Of a stretch of 13,683 bases of DNA, positions 1 to 13,683 are shown one piece after another. Made by a program: the position numbers and the translations under genes. Numbering within the stretch: position 1 is the stretch's first letter; each line of letters begins with the position of its first letter. The stretch is from a virus (taxonomy: Duplodnaviria > Heunggongvirae > Uroviricota > Caudoviricetes): IMG/VR virus record IMGVR_UViG_2879742664_000002; one strand, written 5' to 3'. The notes under the pieces were generated by a model. It was not told where the DNA came from and searched no databases. It worked only from the letters and a program-made list of their open reading frames with translations.

Positions 1-1107
1 TTAAACCCATTCCTGACCTCGAGTATCGTTATAGCGATCGGTGGTTGCCTGGACTTTATGTCCTAGTAATGTTTTTGTATCGATACCCTGTGCACGGTAC
101 AGCCGTTCTGATAGAGAGCGTTGTTCATGAAATGTTGGCGGAGTTTTTCCTGCTGGTGGAATTATCCCAGCCAGATCCCGTGCTTTGGCAAAGTAGTCGC
201 TCAGGTTGTCTTTACTCATCGGCTTCGGTTGTTTCTGGTGCCGACTATGGATTAGATATGGACTTAATATTCTGTCTCGGCACCCATCAATAACTTCTTT
301 TAACGTTATCCCAATGGCATCACAGCGTAGTGTAAGCGGTAACGCCAGACGCATTCCGGTTTTTCCCTGGGTGATATGCAAGTGTTCGTTCCACGCATCT
401 GAAAAACGCATGTGGCAAATGTCATCACGGCGCTGACCAGTAACAATCGCAAGAAGCATTGCGTTACGGATAAAGTGTTTTTCAGGCGTTGCATTGTAAA
501 TTTTTTGCCAGTCTTCCATGGTGAGCCTGGCTCTGGTTACTTTAGGGATCGGTTTACGGGTAGCCTCCGGAGGATTCCATCCAGGAGGAACTTCCCCTGC
601 ATGCTGTGCTTCTTTATAAATATCAACCCATAATCCACGATTTACTCTCGCTGTGCTGACCATGTCTTTATCCAGCCACTCATCCAGTATTAATGCAAAG
701 TCTCTTACTTCCAGTTCTTTCAATGGGTGGTTTCCCAGACGGGAAACCAGGTATGCAGCCATTCGAGTTTTTTCTTTGTGAGTTGTAGCTGCAATATCTC
801 CATTTTTCAGTCGCGTGTCCTGTATTTTCAGATATCGATCAACCCATGCCTTTAATCTGATACCCCGACGTTTTGTTGCTGACGGACTTTCATCAATTTT
901 GCGCATGAAATATTCAGCTTCTGCTGCAGCTATTCGCTGATTGGCTGTGGAAGCGATTTTTTCTGCCTTACCTTTGTCTGTTCCGAGTCCGTGAAATTTT
1001 CCAGTCACAGGATTTTTATACTGGTAGTAAACTCTGCCAGTTCTGCGATCAAACTTTTCGTAAAGACCGGCTACGTCAGTGCTGTTTTTTCGTGGCCTCG
1101 GTGACAT
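1..1107 (-). CDS. int: Phage tyrosine integrase (lambdoid Int family)
   Basis: 368-aa minus-strand ORF; stop codon is bases 1-3, ATG at 1105-1107 with AAGGAG-type RBS just upstream (plus-strand ctcctt 1118-1123). C-terminal tyrosine-recombinase signature visible in translation (TGQRRDD, HEQRSLSERLY, LLGH, terminal Y in TDRY). Confidence 0.9.
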   Translation of the reverse strand: MSPRPRKNSTDVAGLYEKFDRRTGRVYYQYKNPVTGKFHGLGTDKGKAEKIASTANQRIAAAEAEYFMRKIDESPSATKRRGIRLKAWVDRYLKIQDTRLKNGDIAATTHKEKTRMAAYLVSRLGNHPLKELEVRDFALILDEWLDKDMVSTARVNRGLWVDIYKEAQHAGEVPPGWNPPEATRKPIPKVTRARLTMEDWQKIYNATPEKHFIRNAMLLAIVTGQRRDDICHMRFSDAWNEHLHITQGKTGMRLALPLTLRCDAIGITLKEVIDGCRDRILSPYLIHSRHQKQPKPMSKDNLSDYFAKARDLAGIIPPAGKTPPTFHEQRSLSERLYRAQGIDTKTLLGHKVQATTDRYNDTRGQEWV

Positions 1108-2064: not shown

Positions 2065-2079
2065 GTTGGAGTCATTACC

Positions 2080-3097
2080 CGCCGACTGCCTGGAATTTAT
2101 CTGGTCGTTACCCGAAAATTCTGTTGACCTGATAGTCACGGACCCGCCGTACTTTAAAGTGAAGCCTGAGGGCTGGGATAACCAGTGGAAGGGCGACGAT
2201 GATTACCTGAAGTGGCTGGAGCAGTGTCTGGCGCAGTTCTGGCGGGTGCTGAAACCTGCCGGAAGTCTTTACCTGTTCTGTGGTCATCGCCTGGCATCTG
2301 ATATCGAAATCATGATGCGTGAACGCTTCAGTGTGCTGAACCATATTATCTGAGCGAAGCCGTCCGGACGCTGGAACGGATGCAACAAGGAAAGCCTGCG
2401 GGCGTATTTCCCCGCCACAGAGCGCATTCTGTTCGCGGAACATTATCAGGGGCCGTACCGCCCGAAAGATGATGGCTATGAGGCGAAGGGCAGTGCACTG
2501 AAACAGCATGTGATGGCCCCGCTGATTTCTTACTTTCGTGATGCGCGAGCTGCCCTGGGGATAACGGCAAAACAGATTGCAGATGCCACAGGAAAGAAAA
2601 ACATGGTGTCGCACTGGTTCAGTGCCAGTCAGTGGCAGTTGCCGAATGAAAGCGATTATCTGAAATTACAGGCGCTGTTTGCCCGGGTGGCAGAAGAGAA
2701 GCATCGGCGTGGTGAACTGGAAAAGCTCCACCACCAGCTGGTGGATACGTATACCTCACTGAACCGGCAGTATGCGGAGCTGCTGAGTGAATATAAACAT
2801 CTGCGGCGGTATTTTGGCGTGACGGTGCAGGTGCCGTATACCGATGTGTGGACGCATAAACCGGTGCAGTTCTATCCCGGGAAACATCCGTGCGAAAAAC
2901 CGGCAGAAATGCTGCAGCAGATAATCAGCGCTAGCAGTCGTCCGGGTGACCTGATTGCAGATTTTTTCATGGGGTCGGGTTCGACAGTGAAAGCGGCACT
3001 GGCGCTCGGGCGTCGTGCAATTGGCGTTGAGCTGGAGACTGAACGTTTTGAGCAGACGGTTCGGGAAGTACAGGATTTAGTCAGCCAGAACGGATGA
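2080..3097 (+). pseudogene. Beta-class DNA methyltransferase (DPPY type, probably N6-adenine), N-terminally truncated by IS1 and interrupted by in-frame TGA at 2351-2353
   Basis: A single frame carries motif IV (LIVTDPPY), an HPCEKP motif, and motif I (DFFMGSGST) near the C-terminus, with stop at 3095-3097. The only interruption is TGA 2351-2353 in the sequence NHII*AKPSGRWNG. No native start codon downstream of the IS1 end; first in-frame start (TTG 2066) lies inside IS1. Confidence 0.7.
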
Positions 3098-3137: not shown

Positions 3138-3213
3138 GGCCCTTTAGCTCAGTGGTGAGAGCGAGCGACTCATAATCGCCAGGTCGCTGGTTCAAATCCA
3201 GCAAGGGCCACCA
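3138..3213 (+). tRNA. ileZ: tRNA with CAT anticodon, ileX/ileY-like (tRNA-Ile2, lysidine-type; tRNAscan would call it Met)
   Basis: Hand-folded cloverleaf: acceptor ggccctt/aagggcc, D arm gctc-agtggtga-gagc, anticodon stem agcga/tcgcc with loop ctCATaa, T arm gctgg-ttcaaat-ccagc, discriminator A, encoded CCA. Gene symbol follows the prophage tRNA trio of Stx phages as recalled. Confidence 0.85.
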
Positions 3214-3220
3214 TCACATA

Positions 3221-3297
3221 CCGCCATTAGCTCATCAGGAAAGAGCGCCAGCCTTCGAAGCTGGCTGCGCGGGGTTCAAGTCCCCGATGGCGGTCCA
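3221..3297 (+). tRNA. argN: tRNA-Arg, anticodon read as TCG
   Basis: Hand-folded cloverleaf: acceptor ccgccat/atggcgg, D arm gctc-atcaggaaa-gagc, anticodon stem ccagc/gctgg with loop ctTCGaa, T arm cgggg-ttcaagt-ccccg, encoded CCA. Anticodon and symbol assignment are from manual folding and memory, not a tRNA-finder run. Confidence 0.75.
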
Positions 3298-3310
3298 TTA
3301 TCTGCATCAT

Positions 3311-3387
3311 GCGTTGTTAGCTCAGCCGGACAGAGCAATTGCCTTCTAAGCAATCGGTCACTGGTTCGAATCCAGTACAACGCGCCA
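3311..3387 (+). tRNA. argO: tRNA-Arg, anticodon TCT (reads AGA)
   Basis: Hand-folded cloverleaf: acceptor gcgttgt/acaacgc, D arm gctc-agccggaca-gagc, anticodon stem attgc/gcaat with loop ctTCTaa, T arm actgg-ttcgaat-ccagt, discriminator G, encoded CCA. Confidence 0.8.
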
Positions 3388-3427: not shown

Positions 3428-3623
3428 AAATGTCTCACAATTCAGACGGTTGACTGTTGTCTGGTTTGCGGGGAGTTTGTTAAAAGAAACTGGCATGGTG
3501 AATCCCCCTGTGCGGAGGGGCAATCAGCGAGTAGGTATATGGGATAATCGCGGATTCAGGTGCTGGTACTGAATTCACCGGGAGGCACCCGGCACCATGC
3601 AATGGCACATAGCGCCACTCTCC

Positions 3624-3650
3624 AGCCCCTCTCCGGAGGGGCTTTCTTGT
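3624..3650 (+). terminator. GC-rich hairpin with T-rich tail (candidate plus-strand terminator)
   Basis: 8-bp stem agcccctc (3624-3631) / gaggggct (3636-3643), loop tccg, then ttcttgt. Confidence 0.4.
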
Positions 3651-3653
3651 GGG

Positions 3654-3683
3654 CAAAAAAAGCCCGCGCTGGGAGACGCGGGC
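3654..3683 (-). terminator. Candidate minus-strand rho-independent terminator
   Basis: Stem gcccgcg (3662-3668) / cgcgggc (3677-3683) with 8-nt loop, preceded on the plus strand by an A7 run, i.e. hairpin followed by T7 when read on the minus strand. Confidence 0.4.
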
Positions 3684-3876: not shown

Positions 3877-4956
3877 ATGGCTTTTAAACACTATGATGTT
3901 GTCAGGGCGGCGTCGCCGTCAGATCTTGCGGAAAAGCTGACACATAAACTGAAAGAGGGCTGGCAGCCGTTTGGTAGTCCGGTGGCCATAACCCCTTATA
4001 CTCTGATGCAGGCGATTGCAGCAGAAGGTGCAGTAATCAGCGCCACCAGCGACCCGGAGTATTACTTTGTTGTGGTTCTGGCAGGGCAGTCAAACGGCAT
4101 GTCGTATGGTGAAGGCCTTCCGCTGCCGGGGACATATGACCGTCCGGACCCGCGTATTAAGCAACTGGCGCGTCGCAGTACGGTGACACCGGGCGGTGCA
4201 GCATGCAAATATAACGACATCATTCTGGCGGACCATTGTCTGCATGATGTGCAGGACATGAGCCGTCTTAACCATCCGAAAGCGGACCTGTCAAAGGGGC
4301 AGTACGGAACCGTGGGGCAGGGGCTGCATATCGCCAAAAAACTGCTGCCGTTTATACCGGCGAATGCGGGCATTCTGCTGGTTCCGTGCTGTCGTGGTGG
4401 TTCAGCGTTCACCACCGGAGCTGATGGCACATACAGTGACGCGAGTGGTGCCTCGGAGAATTCAACCCGCTGGGGTGTGGACAAGCCGCTGTATAAGGAC
4501 CTTATCGGTCGAACAAAAGCGGCACTGGAGAAGAACCCGAAAAATGTGCTGTTTGCCGTGGTGTGGATGCAGGGGGAATTTGATTTTGGCGGTACGCCGG
4601 CAAATCATGCCGCACAGTTTGGTGCGCTGGTTGATAAATTCCGTGCAGACCTGGCGGATATGGCAGGCCAGTGCGTCGGTGGCTCTGCTGGCGGTGTTCC
4701 CTGGATATGCGGGGACACGACGTATTTCTGGAAGCAGAAGAACGAATCCACGTACCAGACGGTGTACGGCAGCTATAAAAATAAAACGGAAAAGAATATC
4801 CATTTCGTACCGTTCATGACCGATGAGAACGGGGTGAATGTGCCGACGAACAAACCGGAAGAAGACCCGGACATTCGGGGTATCGGTTATTACGGTTCGA
4901 AATGGCGTGACAGCTCAGCCACCTGGACGTCACAGGACAGGGCGAGCCATTTCTAG
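3877..4956 (+). CDS. Prophage NanS-p-like sialate O-acetylesterase (N-terminal DUF1737-like region plus SGNH/SASA esterase domain), probably C-terminally truncated
   Basis: ATG 3877 with GGGAGGA RBS (3866-3872). Translation begins MAFKHYDVVRAASPSDLAEKL... and contains the esterase motif VVVLAGQSNGMSYGEG. ORF ends at TAG 4954-4956, exactly where IS66-like sequence begins; relatives are recalled as roughly 600 aa or more. Confidence 0.7.
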   Translation: MAFKHYDVVRAASPSDLAEKLTHKLKEGWQPFGSPVAITPYTLMQAIAAEGAVISATSDPEYYFVVVLAGQSNGMSYGEGLPLPGTYDRPDPRIKQLARRSTVTPGGAACKYNDIILADHCLHDVQDMSRLNHPKADLSKGQYGTVGQGLHIAKKLLPFIPANAGILLVPCCRGGSAFTTGADGTYSDASGASENSTRWGVDKPLYKDLIGRTKAALEKNPKNVLFAVVWMQGEFDFGGTPANHAAQFGALVDKFRADLADMAGQCVGGSAGGVPWICGDTTYFWKQKNESTYQTVYGSYKNKTEKNIHFVPFMTDENGVNVPTNKPEEDPDIRGIGYYGSKWRDSSATWTSQDRASHF

Positions 4957-5291
4957 ACTGGCCCCCTGAATCTCCAGACAACCAGTATCACTTAAATAAG
5001 TGATAGTCTTAATACTAGTTTTTAGACTAGTCATTGGAGTACAGATGATTGATGTCTTAGGGCCGGAGAAACGCAGACGGCGTACCACACAGGAAAAGAT
5101 CGCAATTGTTCAGCAGAGCTTTGAACCGGGGATGACGGTCTCCCTCGTTGCCCGGCAACATGGTGTAGCAGCCAGCCAGTTATTTCTCTGGCGTAAGCAA
5201 TACCAGGAAGGAAGTCTTACTGCTGTGGCCGCCGGAGAACAGGTTGTTCCTGCCTCTGAACTTGCTGCCGCCATGAAGCAGATTAAAGAAC
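4957..5291 (+). mobile_element. IS66-family left-end fragment (leader plus 5' part of orf1), cut by IS629
   Basis: Contains an orf1 (HTH_Tnp_1-type, ISEc8-like as recalled) preceded by an 88-bp leader with palindromes. Right boundary is the IS629 left terminus at 5292. Left boundary is approximate; no GTAAGCG-type terminus seen at this end. Confidence 0.5.
5045..5291 (+). pseudogene. IS66-family orf1/TnpA (helix-turn-helix accessory protein), 3'-truncated by IS629
   Basis: ATG 5045 with GGAG RBS. Translation [58 protein letters not shown]...MKQIKEL runs into the IS629 terminus after about 82 codons; the tail NRPGNPGD of the ORF is IS629-encoded. Confidence 0.6.
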
Positions 5292-5345
5292 TGAACCGCC
5301 CCGGGAATCCTGGAGACTAAACTCCCTGAGAAAGAGGTAAACAGG

Positions 5346-5672
5346 ATGACTAAAAATACTCGTTTTTCCCCCGAAGTCCGTCAGAGGGCGATTCGTATGG
5401 TTCTGGAAAGTCAGGGCGAATATGACTCACAGTGGGCGGCAATTTGTTCCATTGCCCCAAAGATTGGCTGTATACCGGAGACTCTGCGTGTCTGGGTACG
5501 CCAGCATGAGCGGGATACCGGAGGCGGTGATGGCGGGCTCACCACCGCTGAACGTCAGCGTCTGAAAGAGCTGGAACGTGAAAATCGTGAACTGCGCCGC
5601 AGTAACGATATCCTTCGCCAGGCTTCCGCTTATTTTGCGAAGGCGGAGTTCGACCGCCTCTGGAAAAAGTGA
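5346..5672 (+). CDS. IS629 OrfA (HTH DNA-binding part of the transposase)
   Basis: 108-aa [45 protein letters not shown]... with leucine-zipper-like C-terminus, typical IS3-family OrfA. Confidence 0.9.
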
Positions 5673-6559
5673 TGCCACTGCTGGATAAGCTGCGTAAGCT
5701 GTACGGGGTCGGACCGGTATGCAGTGAACTACATATTGCCCCGTCAACGTATTACCACTGTCAGCAACAGCGACATCATCCTGATAAACGCAGTGCCCGT
5801 GCGCAGCGCGATGACTGGCTGAAGAAAGAGATACTGCGCGTATACGATGGGAATCATCAGGTATACGGTGTGCGTAAAGTCTGGCGTCAGTTGTTACGGG
5901 AAGGTATCAGAGTGGCCAGATGCACTGTGGCACGTCTCATGGCGGTTATGGGACTTGCCGGTGTTCTCCGGGGTAAAAAGGTCCGTACGACCATCAGCCG
6001 GAAAGCCGTTGCCGCAGGCGACCGCGTAAACCGTCAGTTCGTGGCAGAACGACCTGACCAGCTGTGGGTGGCTGATTTTACTTACGTCAGCACATGGCAG
6101 GGCTTCGTCTATGTGGCGTTCATTATTGATGTGTTTGCCGGATACATCGTGGGGTGGCGGGTCTCATCGTCCATGGAAACGACATTCGTGCTGGATGCTC
6201 TGGAGCAGGCGTTATGGGCCCGTCGACCGTCCGGCACGGTCCATCACAGTGATAAAGGTTCTCAGTATGTATCGCTGGCCTACACACAGCGGCTTAAGGA
6301 AGCCGGATTACTGGCATCAACAGGAAGTACAGGCGACTCGTATGACAACGCGATGGCGGAGAGCATCAATGGTCTTTACAAAGCGGAGGTAATACACCGT
6401 AAGAGCTGGAAAAACCGTGCAGAAGTGGAACTGGCCACACTCACGTGGGTGGACTGGTATAATAATCGACGATTGCTGGAAAGGCTGGGCCACATCCCTC
6501 CGGCAGAAGCAGAAAAAGCTTATTATGCTTCCATCGGAAACGATGATCTGGCAGCCTGA
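5669..6559 (+). CDS. IS629 OrfB (DDE catalytic domain; expressed as OrfAB by -1 frameshift)
   Basis: 296-aa ORF overlapping the orfA end in the -1 frame; DDE-type integrase-fold hallmarks ([24 protein letters not shown]). Confidence 0.9.
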
Positions 6560-7622: not shown

Positions 7623-7838
7623 ATGTACCAGATGGAAAAAATCACAACAGGTGTGTCATACACCACGTCAGCGGTGGGAACGGGCTACTGGTTCCTGCAG
7701 TTGCTGGACAGGTTTTCCCCGTCTCAGTGGGCGGCAATAGGCGTGCTGGGGAGTCTGTTGTTTGGGCTGCTGACATATCTGACTAACCTGTATTTCAAAA
7801 TCAGAGAGGACCGTCGTAAGGCGGCGCGGGGAGAGTAA
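7623..7838 (+). CDS. S: Holin, phage 21 S-like (pinholin type)
   Basis: 71-aa [74 protein letters not shown] with two hydrophobic segments and a basic C-terminus. RBS GGGAGACGGGG; two in-frame ATGs (7623, 7632). Confidence 0.8.
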
Positions 7839-7842
7839 AGCG

Positions 7843-8187
7843 ATGAAGAAAAAATACGAACTGGTTGTTAAAGGGATAAATAATTACCCGAATAAGATTA
7901 CTGTTACTGTGGCACTGGAAATTGGTGGGTATCCGTCACTGTTGTTGCCAGATGTGGCGATTAGTCTTGACCGTACTGAAGATGCCACGCTGGAGTTTTA
8001 CGAAGCTGAGGCGAAAAAGCAGGCGAAGCAGTTTTTCATGGATGTTGCTGCCGGGTTATGTGAAGGGGATGGTCCGTTGCCGGAAAAGCGCCCCGTAATT
8101 TTAGAGGCGCAGGATGTGTTGATAACCTACAGAGGAAAACTACCGGGAATAATTACTGGTTCTCTGAAGACTCCACCGCTGGCCTGA
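7843..8187 (+). CDS. Hypothetical soluble protein (114 aa) between holin and endolysin
   Basis: ATG 7843 only 5 bp after the holin stop with GGAGAG RBS; no hydrophobic segment; no family recognised by eye. Confidence 0.5.
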   Translation: MKKKYELVVKGINNYPNKITVTVALEIGGYPSLLLPDVAISLDRTEDATLEFYEAEAKKQAKQFFMDVAAGLCEGDGPLPEKRPVILEAQDVLITYRGKLPGIITGSLKTPPLA

Positions 8188-8237: not shown

Positions 8238-8771
8238 ATGAACACCAAAATCAAATACGGCCTGTCGGCTGCCGTTCTGGCGCTGATTGCCGCAGGTGCG
8301 CCTGCGCCTGAAATCCTCGACCAGTTTCTGGATGAAAAGGAAGGTAACCACACCACGGCATACCGTGATGGCGCGGGTATCTGGACCATCTGCCGCGGTG
8401 CCATCCTGGTGGATAGTAAACCTGTCGTCCCGGGCATGAAGTTGTCGAAGGAAAAATGCGACCAGGTCAACGCCATTGAGCGTGATAAGGCGCTGGCATG
8501 GGTGGAGCGCAATATTAAAGTGCCGCTGACCGAACCCCAGAAAGCGGGTATCGCGTCATTTTGTCCCTATAACATTGGCCCCGGTAAGTGTTTCCCGTCG
8601 ACGTTTTACAGACGGATTAATGCTGGTGACCGCAGGGGAGCATGCGAAGCGATTCGCTGGTGGATTAAGGACGGTGGCAGAGACTGCCGTATCCGCTCAA
8701 ATAATTGCTACGGTCAGGTATCCCGGCGAGACCAGGAAAGTGCGCTGGCGTGCTGGGACATCGACAGATAA
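8238..8771 (+). CDS. R: SAR endolysin (T4-lysozyme-like GH24 muramidase with N-terminal signal-anchor-release segment)
   Basis: 177-aa ORF; N-terminal Gly/Ala-rich weakly hydrophobic segment (GLSAAVLALIAAGAPAP) followed by the catalytic E...D...T signature (EGNHTTAYRDGAGIWTICRG). Confidence 0.85.
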   Translation: MNTKIKYGLSAAVLALIAAGAPAPEILDQFLDEKEGNHTTAYRDGAGIWTICRGAILVDSKPVVPGMKLSKEKCDQVNAIERDKALAWVERNIKVPLTEPQKAGIASFCPYNIGPGKCFPSTFYRRINAGDRRGACEAIRWWIKDGGRDCRIRSNNCYGQVSRRDQESALACWDIDR

Positions 8772-8861
8772 GCAGAATATTTTGCTGAAAATAAGGCATG
8801 AGCACGCGGACGGATAACACGAAATCCTGCGAACTGGCGAAACGTAAGTGAATAAAAGTAA

Positions 8862-8900
8862 AAACCCCGTTTGTTGGCACCAGGCGGGGTTTTGTGTTTC
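8862..8900 (+). terminator. Intrinsic terminator/attenuator-like hairpin between R and the downstream small ORFs
   Basis: Stem aaaccccg (8862-8869) / cggggttt (8885-8892), extendable with G-U pairs to about 13 bp, followed by tttgtgtttc. Confidence 0.5.
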
Positions 8901-8926
8901 TGACCTTGAGTAAGGCAAGGGAGAAC

Positions 8927-9109
8927 ATGGCGAAGTATAAACGAATTCTGTTGAGGTTGACCATGAAAAACGGCCTTGAACTGAAAGCGCCTGTAACTGA
9001 TGACATCAGCAGAGCACTGGCTTTTGCCATTAAGTGGGTGGCGGTCGGTGTTGCTGTGTCCCCGATGCTGTATGGGCTGGCAAAACTGGTCATTGCGTTG
9101 AAATCGTGA
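8927..9109 (+). CDS. Hypothetical small membrane protein (60 aa)
   Basis: ATG 8927 with AAGGGAG upstream; basic N-terminal half (MAKYKRILLRLTMKNG...) and one C-terminal hydrophobic helix (WVAVGVAVSPMLYGLAKLVIAL). Confidence 0.4.
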   Translation: MAKYKRILLRLTMKNGLELKAPVTDDISRALAFAIKWVAVGVAVSPMLYGLAKLVIALKS

Positions 9110-9123
9110 AGGGAGGATTAAGC

Positions 9124-9255
9124 ATGTCAGACAAACTCATAACGCTGGCGAAGATCCTCTGTGTAATTGTCGGCATTTCATTTTCACTAATGCTGGTTGC
9201 TCTTTTTCTTTCCATGGCCTGGATGATGTTGTCTTCGTCGGGGCTGCTGGGGTGA
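9124..9255 (+). CDS. Hypothetical small hydrophobic protein (43 aa), translationally coupled to Rz
   Basis: ATG 9124 with strong GGGAGGA RBS at 6-nt spacing; almost entirely hydrophobic (ITLAKILCVIVGISFSLMLVALFLSMAWMML); stop TGA 9253-9255 overlaps the Rz GTG start (9252-9254). Confidence 0.45.
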   Translation: MSDKLITLAKILCVIVGISFSLMLVALFLSMAWMMLSSSGLLG

Positions 9256-9650
9256 ACATAAACCGAATGCTTTCCGCGTTTACCGTTATTCTGCTGGTGG
9301 TCTGTGGTGCGCTGTGGCTGGCAACAGACCATTACCGTGATAACGCCATCACCTACAAAGCGCAGCGCGATAAAAAAGCCAGAGAGCTGGAGCTGGCAAA
9401 CGCAACCATTACTGACATGCAGCAGCGCCAGCGTGATGTTGCCGCTGGTCGTAAGCGCCTGCGGATCAACGCCACCTGCTCCGGTACCGTGCGTGAAGCC
9501 ACCGGCACCTCCGGAATGGATAATGCAACCGGCCCCCGACTGGCAGACACCGCTGAACGGGATTATTTCACCCTCAGAGAGCGGTTGATGACAATGCAGA
9601 AGCAACTGGAAGGGGCGCAGGAATATATCCGCACTCAGTGTATTAACTAG
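9252..9650 (+). CDS. Rz: Rz inner-membrane spanin (i-spanin)
   Basis: 132-aa ORF (start GTG 9252 or ATG 9267) with N-terminal TM helix then HYRDNAITYKAQRDK...RLADTAERDYFTLRERLMTMQKQLEGAQEYI, closely resembling lambda Rz as recalled. Confidence 0.85.
   Translation: MNINRMLSAFTVILLVVCGALWLATDHYRDNAITYKAQRDKKARELELANATITDMQQRQRDVAAGRKRLRINATCSGTVREATGTSGMDNATGPRLADTAERDYFTLRERLMTMQKQLEGAQEYIRTQCIN
9436..9588 (+). CDS. Rz1: Rz1 outer-membrane lipoprotein spanin (o-spanin), embedded in the +1 frame of Rz
   Basis: ATG 9436 inside Rz; MLPLVVSACGSTPPAPVPCVKPPAPPEWIMQPAPDWQTPLNGIISPSESG has a lipobox (VSAC) and proline-rich body like lambda Rz1. Confidence 0.8.
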   Translation: MLPLVVSACGSTPPAPVPCVKPPAPPEWIMQPAPDWQTPLNGIISPSESG

Positions 9651-9673: not shown

Positions 9674-9898
9674 ATGAAGAAATTACTGGTAACCGTAAAG
9701 CCTTTTCAGGGAACAATTCCGTTCCGTATTTTGCAGCGTGGTCGTGTTCTTGTTGAAGGTTCGTTCAGTGGTAAATGTACGCAATTACACTCCCGGACCT
9801 TTCAGGTGAATGCCACGAATGAAGAGCTAACCGTTGAGTGTACGATGAATGCCGCTAAATGCCGCATGGTATCCGCTGCATTACAGCCAGTGTGTTGA
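9674..9898 (+). CDS. Hypothetical small protein (74 aa, four Cys)
   Basis: ATG 9674 with GGAGA RBS at 5-nt spacing, 24 bp after the Rz stop; no signal peptide or TM segment; no recognisable family. Confidence 0.45.
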   Translation: MKKLLVTVKPFQGTIPFRILQRGRVLVEGSFSGKCTQLHSRTFQVNATNEELTVECTMNAAKCRMVSAALQPVC

Positions 9899-10222: not shown

Positions 10223-10236
10223 TATCTGTGCCGGGA

Positions 10237-10569
10237 ATGAAAATGAAAAGAAACCTTCCGTTAATTATTTTGTTGTCTTCTCTGGTTATGGGCTGTACGC
10301 AACATAAAACAGATATGCCCCGACAGTTGGTTAAGGCATTACCACAATATCCGGCCTATGCAGCGGCAAATTATATAAAGGGACGGGTTGATGTGAAGTT
10401 TGATATTGGTGCTGATGGTACTGTCACCCGAATTGAGTTTATCCGTTCAGAGCCGCACCATTTGTTTGATGAGCAGGTTGTAAAGGCGATGGCAAAATGG
10501 CGATTTGAGAAGGACAGGCCGTGTAAAGGCGTGAAGAAAACGTTTATCTTTAGTCCTTCTGCACCCTGA
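10237..10569 (+). CDS. Lipoprotein with TonB C-terminal domain (TonB_C-like), prophage accessory gene
   Basis: Signal peptide with lipobox (MKMKRNLPLIILLSSLVMGC, Thr at +2). Mature region PQYPAYAAANYIKGRVDVKFDIGADGTVTRIEFIRSEPHHLFDEQVVKAMAKWRFE aligns by eye with E. coli TonB C-terminal domain ([34 protein letters not shown]...FEREVKNAMRRWRYE). Start could be ATG 10237 or 10243. Confidence 0.75.
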   Translation: MKMKRNLPLIILLSSLVMGCTQHKTDMPRQLVKALPQYPAYAAANYIKGRVDVKFDIGADGTVTRIEFIRSEPHHLFDEQVVKAMAKWRFEKDRPCKGVKKTFIFSPSAP

Positions 10570-12469: not shown

Positions 12470-12796
12470 ATGACTAAAAATACTCGTTTTTCCCCCGAAG
12501 TCCGTCAGAGGGCGATTCGTATGGTTCTGGAAAGTCAGGGCGAATATGACTCACAGTGGGCGGCAATTTGTTCCATTGCCCCAAAGATTGGCTGTACACC
12601 GGAGACTCTGCGTGTCTGGGTACGCCAGCATGAGCGGGATACCGGAGGCGGTGATGGCGGGCTCACCACCGCTGAACGTCAGCGTCTGAAAGAGCTGGAA
12701 CGTGAAAATCGTGAACTGCGCCGCAGTAACGATATCCTTCGCCAGGCTTCCGCTTATTTTGCGAAGGCGGAGTTCGACCGCCTCTGGAAAAAGTGA
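12470..12796 (+). CDS. IS629 OrfA (copy 2)
   Basis: 108-aa ORF identical to copy 1 except Ile to Thr at residue 43 ([12 protein letters not shown]). Confidence 0.9.
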
Positions 12797-13683
12797 TGCC
12801 ACTGCTGGATAAGCTGCGTAAGCTGTACGGGGTCGGACCGGTATGCAGTGAACTACATATTGCCCCGTCAACGTATTACCACTGTCAGCAACAGCGACAT
12901 CATCCTGATAAACGCAGTGCCCGTGCGCAGCGCGATGACTGGCTGAAGAAAGAGATACTGCGCGTATACGATGGGAATCATCAGGTATACGGTGTGCGTA
13001 AAGTCTGGCGTCAGTTGTTACGGGAAGGTATCAGAGTGGCCAGATGCACTGTGGCACGTCTCATGGCGGTTATGGGACTTGCCGGTGTTCTCCGGGGTAA
13101 AAAGGTCCGTACGACCATCAGCCGGAAAGCCGTTGCCGCAGGCGACCGCGTAAACCGTCAGTTCGTGGCAGAACGACCTGACCAGCTGTGGGTGGCTGAT
13201 TTTACTTACGTCAGCACATGGCAGGGCTTCGTCTATGTGGCGTTCATTATTGATGTGTTTGCCGGATACATCGTGGGGTGGCGGGTCTCATCGTCCATGG
13301 AAACGACATTCGTGCTGGATGCTCTGGAGCAGGCGTTATGGGCCCGTCGACCGTCCGGCACGGTCCATCACAGTGATAAAGGTTCTCAGTATGTATCGCT
13401 GGCCTACACACAGCGGCTTAAGGAAGCCGGATTACTGGCATCAACAGGAAGTACAGGCGACTCGTATGACAACGCGATGGCGGAGAGCATCAATGGTCTT
13501 TACAAAGCGGAGGTAATACACCGTAAGAGCTGGAAAAACCGTGCAGAAGTGGAACTGGCCACGCTCACGTGGGTGGACTGGTATAATAATCGACGATTGC
13601 TGGAAAGGCTGGGCCACATCCCTCCGGCAGAAGCAGAAAAAGCTTATTATGCTTCCATCGGAAACGATGATCTGGCAGCCTGA
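12793..13683 (+). CDS. IS629 OrfB (copy 2; expressed as OrfAB by frameshift)
   Basis: 296-aa ORF matching copy 1 at the protein level; stop codon is the last three bases of the window. Confidence 0.9.

Follow-up and report, generated by a model that had tools for sequence, protein, structure and literature searches.

Two small accessory membrane-protein genes with a terminator-first layout between the endolysin and spanin genes of lambdoid phage late operons

In phages lambda and 21 the spanin gene Rz is placed directly after the endolysin gene R. Morons, in the concept of Hendrix and Juhala, are small extra genes variably present between conserved late genes, such as lambda bor and lom or HK97 gp15; in its textbook form a moron is preceded by a promoter of its own and followed by a terminator. 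Among the accessory proteins of lysis, P2 LysA is a membrane protein encoded between the endolysin gene K and the spanin genes lysB/lysC, which affects lysis timing, and S21-71, P1 LydB and the Mu gp25 releasin are other antiholin or lysis-timing accessories. Here we analyze two small open reading frames (ORFs), smORF-A and smORF-B (A and B below), which lie together with a terminator-like hairpin between R and Rz in a 13,683-nucleotide (nt) stretch of a Caudoviricetes virus, the IMG/VR record IMGVR_UViG_2879742664_000002, designated the window at its full length. The initial annotation of this DNA had assumed that Rz normally follows R directly, which is true of lambda and phage 21, whereas the R-Rz junction in general proved to be a common variable slot. 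We class A and B as small accessory membrane-protein inserts of phage late operons; with the terminator placed first and the gene after it, their design as a module is unusual and the reverse of that of the textbook moron.

Like morons and the ant insert of Shiga toxin (Stx) phages, A and B are small extra genes variably present between conserved late genes, and they use the same slot as ant; the arrangements A-B-Rz, A-Rz, ant-B-Rz, ant-A-Rz, GH19-A-Rz and A-B-lipoprotein were all encountered. In contrast to the textbook moron, no promoter was found for them and the terminator is fixed 5' of A, and the terminator scan revealed none between A, B and Rz. With P2 LysA and the other accessories they share the position of a small membrane-protein gene between endolysin and spanin genes; however, no sequence similarity was found, A and B are far smaller proteins, each having a single transmembrane (TM) segment, and A occurs with four endolysin types, so that it is not tied to the release of signal-anchor-release (SAR) endolysins. 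The likeness to hok/mok/sok consists in a small hydrophobic membrane protein and, in some variants of A, in a leader ORF coupled to its start, to which a putative short cis-antisense RNA over the start of A, ending at the terminator hairpin, might be added; A differs from this system in lacking a toxin-mRNA promoter and any similarity to Rfam antitoxin RNAs or known toxin families. By size and membrane character (hydrophobic, less than about 60 amino acids, aa) both proteins come within the range of type I toxins, A with 60 aa and B with 43 aa and one TM segment each.

smORF-A (8927..9109, plus strand) runs from ATG 8927 to TGA 9109 and is preceded by the Shine-Dalgarno (SD) sequence AAGGGAG (8917..8923, plus strand), which has a 3-nt spacer to the ATG and is conserved in relatives. 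smORF-B (9124..9255, plus strand) runs from ATG 9124 to TGA 9255. That both are real genes under purifying selection appears near-certain from the comparison of 253 related loci (cited below by L numbers) gathered from IMG/VR, public assemblies, phage records and Escherichia coli genomes. In copies selected by ungapped tblastn, a choice biased towards intact copies, the ratio of nonsynonymous to synonymous polymorphism (pN/pS) in the annotated frame was 0.20 for the core of A (codons 14–59; 39 distinct DNA versions) and 0.37 for B (27 distinct versions). The other five frames of A gave 0.35–7.4, most of them 0.66–7.4 and the wobble-sharing antisense frame the lowest, and in B four other frames gave 0.85–1.3 and the wobble-sharing antisense frame 0.40. 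The variable sites of A were distributed over the three codon positions as 17/9/36. The initial annotation had proposed to see whether related phages carry this segment as a non-coding spacer with disrupted frames; both frames turned out to be open there and under purifying selection. A divergent clade of B (MSDSIIKLARILCVVVGLSFSAMLVAIFISTAWRVLSLSGLIGG), 44 aa long and about 70% identical at the nucleotide level, keeps the length, the frame and the hydrophobic profile.

Family searches agree with this coding status. The PHROG family of A is phrog_1115 (2.6e-42) and that of B is phrog_4906 (2.1e-23), each matched over its full length (residues 1–60 and 1–43, respectively); both families are of unknown function, as are phrog_4493 and phrog_3246, which are likewise linked to A. 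Close relatives are the RefSeq hypothetical proteins WP_001151823.1 (A; 60 aa) and WP_001280932.1 (B; 43 aa), situated at the equivalent positions in L001. The B homolog in prophage Sp10 of the O157 strain Sakai is XECs191 (ECs_1966). XECs191 was listed as a translated novel gene on the basis of ribosome profiling (Ribo-seq), with 30 reads per kilobase per million (RPKM) of RNA and 12.6 RPKM of ribosome footprints in uninduced LB cultures (Hucker et al., 2017, PMC5597208). It is because of the frame-specific selection, the PHROG matches, the RefSeq annotation and this Ribo-seq report for the B homolog that the two ORFs are regarded as genes. Searches of Pfam, NCBIfam, PADLOC and PDB sequences gave no meaningful match to either protein, and among the PADLOC defence-protein models none was hit at E<=1. 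A and B are already catalogued though uncharacterized, and not previously unseen; a literature search with the WP accessions of their relatives returned no match, and a survey of Stx-phage lysis cassettes does not mention them.

The hairpin with its T-rich tail (8861..8902, without strand assignment; stem 8861–8893) had been described in the initial annotation, and its existence and position were borne out, as were the other coordinates and descriptions given there; the interpretation attached to them found support in part. The arms AAAACCCCGTTTG/CAGGCGGGGTTTT form 13 pairs around a 7-nt loop and are followed by the tail GTGTTTCTG; the stem ends 34 nt before the ATG of A. Taken as a single sequence, the hairpin (-18.5 kcal/mol) is only modestly unusual in comparison with shuffles (z -2.1 to -2.7; 1 to 5 of 200 shuffles as stable), and the terminator scan did not exceed chance (5 sites per 3 kb vs 3.1 expected). 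Across 16 distinct variants, 97.6% of the hairpin cells were paired, a value that none of 500 shuffles attained, with slid 3' partners as the control giving at most 62%; four pairs were altered on both sides, and the variants individually had -18 to -23 kcal/mol (z -2.7 to -5.1). The hairpin is judged to be real because of this conservation across variants and not because of its single-sequence energy.

A terminator-like hairpin was found directly 5' of A in every A copy examined, in 12 different upstream contexts, among them the 3' flank of R, ant, phrog_33497, a GH19 endolysin gene, tail-fibre genes and another terminator. Its loop has diverged among relatives, as has the 5' untranslated region (UTR) of A, and the most distant A relatives keep the hairpin with another stem sequence (GCCCG or AGCCCC for CCCCG). 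Over these 12 contexts the 10 nt 5' of the stem are A-rich (5.5 A vs 2.6 in the background) and the 10 nt 3' of it are T-rich (4.9 vs 2.5), and the hairpin therefore has the appearance of a terminator working in both directions; it also forms the left border of the A module. Read on the minus strand, its flank is UUUUUACUUUUAUU with a good U-tract (TTTTTACTTTTATT); on the plus strand the G+C-rich stem-loop of 13 bp is directly followed by the U-rich tract UUUUGUGUUUCUG, which is the composition of an intrinsic terminator. We are fairly confident that the hairpin acts as a terminator. The initial annotation also held that the hairpin leaves no room for a promoter before A, and indeed the promoter scan detected no sigma-70-like plus-strand site between the two. 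The Rfam search of hairpin and spacer on both strands gave no family at gathering score; a known RNA family at this site was rejected, as at E<=10 the sole match was a 25-bit rimP-leader-like one on the minus strand, below its threshold. Positions also differ for the Pas small RNAs (sRNAs), located upstream of the holin gene, and for svsR, located in cI, which were considered as RNAs at the hairpin/A site and dismissed.

Of 5426 complete E. coli genomes, 1043 (~19%) contain the hairpin with A at a coverage of at least 80%, and 1696 (~31%) contain B, with up to 11 copies per genome. Among phage records, B is present in 276, including most Stx phages, where it is often unannotated, and A in 14; both are common in E. 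coli and Salmonella prophages. Most of the sampled copies lie inside lysis cassettes. The commonest R-Rz layout in the sample was S21-(YdfR)-R-A-B-Rz; in the R-A-Rz layout B is replaced by a 28-aa RWW-type mini-paralog of A. The ant-B-Rz layout is that of Stx phages, in which B overlaps ant and the A-linked hairpin is lacking before B-Rz, and of Sakai Sp10; ant-A-Rz and GH19 endolysin-A-Rz are further layouts. Rz is missing from cassettes with a GH108 or M15 endolysin, where the gene after A, or after A and B, encodes a 60-aa lipoprotein. The next gene within 120 nt of B is Rz in 76 and the lipoprotein gene in 32 of 115 distinct copies (94% together), while A is followed by B in 111 of 153 distinct copies, by Rz in 18, by the lipoprotein gene in 7 and by another A in 6. 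These patterns indicate that A and B assort independently as separate modules, B being tied to the following gene and A being more freely placed. Four endolysin types were met beside A (R21-type lysozyme, GH19, GH108 and M15), and A is found outside lysis cassettes as well; therefore it is not the partner of a particular holin or endolysin.

Several rearrangements were noticed in the same slot. Where B is absent, the 28-aa ORF before Rz (MSAELIRAMAFAIRIVAIAVLVWAIRWW; L211 at ~2697–2786, also L210 and L054) is similar to RWW-type relatives of A in their C-terminal half. An A-B-A order was seen in a few loci (L141, 2304–2748), and fused B/A frames occur (e.g., protein P0093), which shows that recombination takes place within the slot. 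L251 carries tandem hairpin-gene-hairpin-gene units.

The A protein begins with a basic N-terminal helix (K or R at positions 3, 5, 6, 10, 14 and 20), continues with the motif MKNGLExxAPVT and ends in an Ala/Gly-rich TM helix, in agreement with the single C-terminal TM helix initially ascribed to it. The hydrophobic stretch (approximately residues 30–58) is weakly hydrophobic, with a hydropathy value (KD19) of 1.88, comparable to the 1.74 of the signal-anchor-like segment of R. AlphaFold2 modelled a helix at residues 2–14, a linker and a helix at residues 25–59 (mean predicted local distance difference test score, pLDDT, 76), and A is predicted to use its C-terminal helix as a membrane anchor. 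The A family is narrow: a profile search of 1.84 billion representatives yielded 21 relatives only, and a one-genome-per-species scan yielded none. Distant relatives keep xYKRIxxRLxMKNGLExDAPV encoded by different codons, followed by a hydrophobic C-terminus, and some of them end in RWW. A paralogous origin of A and B was rejected, as the hhalign probability was 4.8% and solely 13 TM residues were covered. In Salmonella and in some E. coli copies of A (L162, 2978–3005; equivalents in L166/L167; L231) a 30-nt insert introduces an 8-codon leader ORF, the stop of which overlaps a GTG start of A; the leader peptides, MCREVCSL or MDMEIFRE, are mutually unrelated in sequence. The A of the window has no such insert, its ATG lying 3 nt after the SD.

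B consists of one very hydrophobic TM helix (KD19 2.89) followed by about 9 residues, and Lys4 and Lys10 on the N-terminal side of the TM segment suggest an N-in orientation. Neither protein has the make-up of an i-spanin, with its N-terminal TM segment and long periplasmic coiled coil, since B has an N-terminal TM segment with those approximately 9 residues behind it and the TM segment of A is C-terminal. With regard to holins and antiholins, which have one or more TM segments, a highly charged C-terminal tail and a gene beside that of the endolysin, A and B have one TM segment each and lie in the cassette, and their C-termini (...ALKS in A and ...SGLLG in B) bear no charged tail. The strong SD of B, AGGGAGGA (9110..9117, plus strand; 7-nt spacer), and the overlap of its stop codon with the Rz GTG, both pointed out in the initial annotation of this hydrophobic 43-aa peptide, were verified: the stop at 9253–9255 overlaps GTG 9252, a codon of the Rz frame. 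In a relative, the NCBI pipeline places the Rz start at the counterpart of ATG 9267. Initiation at the GTG would prepend MNINR and thereby an Arg as the only N-terminal basic residue, which is missing with the ATG start; Rz may start at either GTG 9252 or ATG 9267. Being packed tightly against the start of Rz or of the lipoprotein gene, B is suggested to be co-translated with its neighbour and to have a partner-linked role. An origin of B as a relic of the N-terminal TM segment of Rz was rejected (hhalign probability 0.4%).

The reading that we favour, and to which we give about an even chance, is that the locus holds two mobile late-operon modules which would be silenced by a terminator, expressed by Q read-through and active at the inner membrane around lysis. 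The first module would consist of the bidirectional terminator hairpin and smORF-A, and the second of smORF-B packed against the start of Rz. Having no promoter of their own, A and B would be transcribed only within the late transcript of a lambdoid prophage; in the lysogen, ordinary polymerase arriving from upstream would stop at the hairpin, leaving A, B and Rz/Rz1 silent. In lambdoid late operons, Q-modified polymerase from pR' reads through terminators. After induction, such terminator-resistant polymerase would pass the hairpin, and A and B would be made alongside holin, endolysin and spanin and would insert in the inner membrane as accessory lysis factors, B acting most likely with the product of the next gene (Rz or the small lipoprotein) and A as a more general membrane-active accessory protein. 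Termination, Q read-through, late expression and the lysis role are here inferred. A true lysis role for A or B has in our estimate roughly one chance in three.

Several observations weigh against this interpretation. Some A relatives stand after tail-fibre genes with no spanin nearby, which would be more typical of a general moron than of a factor specific to lysis, and the plus-strand U-tract of the terminator (UUUUGUGUUUCUG) is moderate only. Among the holin, antiholin, spanin and defence models of Pfam, PHROG, NCBIfam and PADLOC, none was matched by A or B. About 6% of the sampled B copies have a frame disrupted either by loss of 11 nt or by a +1 insertion, which is expected for decaying prophages. 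The Ribo-seq signal of the Sakai B homolog is low, comes from uninduced cultures and concerns an ORF with an upstream extension. In the genome from which the window derives, the A/B module is probably not expressed, there being no Q gene and the late region being disrupted by insertion sequences (ISs). Finally, lambda and phage 21 lyse their hosts without genes of the A/B type, so any role would be accessory.

Of the other explanations, a fortuitous opening of both frames within non-coding spacer DNA is hardly credible: the ORFs are short, have no Pfam or NCBIfam family, are frameshifted in some copies and, in the case of B, often left unannotated, but the reading is effectively refuted by the frame-specific selection, by the preservation of frame and length at about 70% nucleotide identity, by the distant relatives at the protein level, by the ribosome-binding sites of both ORFs and by the Ribo-seq report for the B homolog. 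The initial annotation had proposed that the hairpin may be an attenuator controlling how much spanin and small protein is made; the amounts would be set relative to S and R. The location of the hairpin between R and A-B-Rz with no promoter after it is in keeping with this proposal, and the interrupted U-tract makes partial termination plausible; however, the hairpin travels with A and not with Rz, to sites behind ant, behind three other endolysin types and behind tail-fibre genes that have no spanin nearby, the B-Rz pair of Stx phages lacks it, and Q-modified polymerase largely ignores intrinsic terminators, so that we regard the proposal as not supported and quite improbable. In a Q-antiterminated operon a terminator is more likely to be an on/off insulator than a dosage attenuator, with some partial read-through being possible in view of the modest U-tract. 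Somewhat less improbable, while still unlikely, is that A and/or B are classic morons serving the lysogen through superinfection exclusion or another host benefit, the lysis cassette being just a tolerated slot; HK97 gp15, a small inner-membrane protein, is an example of a moron of this kind. Such a role would agree with the variable presence of A and B among otherwise similar cassettes, the occupation of the same slot by ant, which is not a lysis gene, the occurrence of A relatives after tail-fibre genes, a classic moron site, the intactness of A and B in a heavily degraded remnant, and the low RNA and Ribo-seq signal of the B homolog in uninduced Sakai, though the latter possibly originates from spontaneous induction in a subpopulation. 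It is opposed by the absence of promoter-like sites before A or B, by a terminator that stands before A and not behind it, by the lack of a PADLOC match and by the position of B against the downstream Rz or lipoprotein gene in 94% of distinct copies, which speaks for co-expression with the downstream gene.

The start of A bears on a further explanation. Synonymous diversity is 0.037 in codons 4–18 (8936–8980) and 0.200 in codons 19–60 (Mann-Whitney p = 5e-4), although both flanks of the former stretch have diverged, and the beginning of A is therefore under some constraint at the level of nucleotides. A putative promoter-like site, TGGTCA-18-TATACT (8934..8963, minus strand), was located by the promoter scan inside codons 3–13 and coincides with the constrained stretch. 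The hairpin and A might accordingly form a hok/mok/sok-like, antisense-gated membrane-toxin cassette residing in late operons: from this minus-strand promoter (8963–8934) an RNA of about 70 nt would cover the start and the SD of A and end at the hairpin, and A would be translated only when late transcription outruns the antisense RNA. We consider this doubtful, on a par with the lysogen-serving role. In its favour, apart from the promoter-like site and the suppressed synonymous variation, the divergent lineages L250 and L165 retain the -10 hexamer and L251 has -10-like hexamers in the corresponding position (as read by eye), the A-rich tract 5' of the hairpin provides the good minus-strand U-tract TTTTTACTTTTATT in 12 unrelated contexts, and the leader ORFs of Salmonella and L231 have a mok-like geometry and the units of L251 are in tandem. 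Set against it, the promoter scan is at the level of chance (4 sites vs 3.2 in 3 kb), the constrained block also holds an internal SD (GAGG) with Met13 and the most conserved peptide motif, either of which could account for the constraint, and the YK codons (TATAAA) yield -10-like hexamers for free; the toxin-mRNA promoter, by which known type I systems are in part defined, is missing, neither strand has an Rfam match, and the transcription start site supplements for EDL933 contain no matching sequence among the entries listed. A conserved mRNA structure spanning the 5' UTR and codons 1–20 of A was rejected as well, the RNAalifold covariation being -0.01 with invariant and hence uninformative stems.

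Returning to the two-module reading, the terminator-first layout suggests that a product active on membranes is tightly silenced, with antisense control as a possible addition. If A and B tune the timing or completeness of lysis, burst size would be affected, and in Stx phages toxin release too. It would be worthwhile to annotate the hairpin and the two ORFs consistently.

Cassettes devoid of Rz/Rz1 offer a concrete place for seeking a new outer-membrane disruption factor. The 60-aa lipoprotein found there (phrog_7528; L173, 2417–3022; L253, which is phiSTEC1575-Stx2k, OQ243220, 2417–2837; L212) is placed exactly as Rz is in the window, and no Rz/Rz1 is present in the sampled region. It has the form MxRKHWTHR..LVGC with a 30-residue mature part containing two more Cys, and all 105 of its homolog clusters are named "hypothetical" or "lipoprotein" only. 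This lipoprotein is a candidate for a new outer-membrane disruption factor; even more tentatively, A or B together with it might replace the spanin in such cassettes (e.g., in phiSTEC1575-Stx2k).

The lysis cassette of the window starts with a phage-21-type class II (pin)holin with the dual start MYQMEK (7623..7838, plus strand; starts 7623/7632; PF04971, 1.7e-32), followed by a YdfR/DUF1327 ORF between holin and endolysin (7843..8187, plus strand; PF07041, 2.4e-45; assigned to the YdfR family in a relative) and by R, a lysozyme whose N-terminal segment is weakly hydrophobic and signal-anchor-like (8238..8771, plus strand; PF00959, 2.8e-24; phrog_7). The 3' flank of R (8772..8860, plus strand) is non-coding by comparison with L003 and L162, and a 17-codon ORF in it (8799–8852) was discarded as a gene, being not conserved and having an early stop in the Stx phage version. 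This flank of about 90 nt (GCAGAATATTTTGCTGAAAA...GGATAACACGAAATCC...) is kept in Stx phages (L003, 2073–2158), where another terminator-like hairpin follows, and an R-type 3' flank reappears after the lipoprotein gene in L212. Downstream of B, the Rz i-spanin gene (9252..9650, plus strand, from GTG 9252 or ATG 9267; PF03245, 8.5e-33) has a 25-aa in-frame internal deletion: alignment with relatives shows that 75 nt were lost between RDVAA and ADVAAG repeats, with an identical junction in 8 IMG/VR loci. The same deletion truncates the signal peptide of the embedded Rz1 o-spanin remnant (9436..9588, plus strand) to MLPLVVSAC, and the Rz/Rz1 spanin of the window is probably dead.

The prophage of the window is a remnant in which A and B are intact; neither a Q gene nor a terminase gene is present in the window. 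It comprises an integrase gene (1–1107, minus strand), an IS1 transposase fragment (1669–2064), a split N6/N4 methylase gene (2066–3097), three tRNA genes (3138–3384) followed by a match to the STnc100 sRNA family (3464–3654; 139 bits), a DUF1737-SASA esterase gene (3877–4956) cut by IS3-family elements at 5000–6559, a TonB_C lipoprotein gene (10228–10569) and a second identical IS copy (12470–13683); ALIL frameshift pseudoknots were detected at 5627 and 12751. The tRNA genes and the STnc100 match recall the region downstream of Q in Stx-type phages. After Rz, a 74-aa ORF (9674–9898; MKKLLVTVKPFQGTIPFRILQRG...) matches part of phrog_2571 and is also found after the lipoprotein gene in L173.

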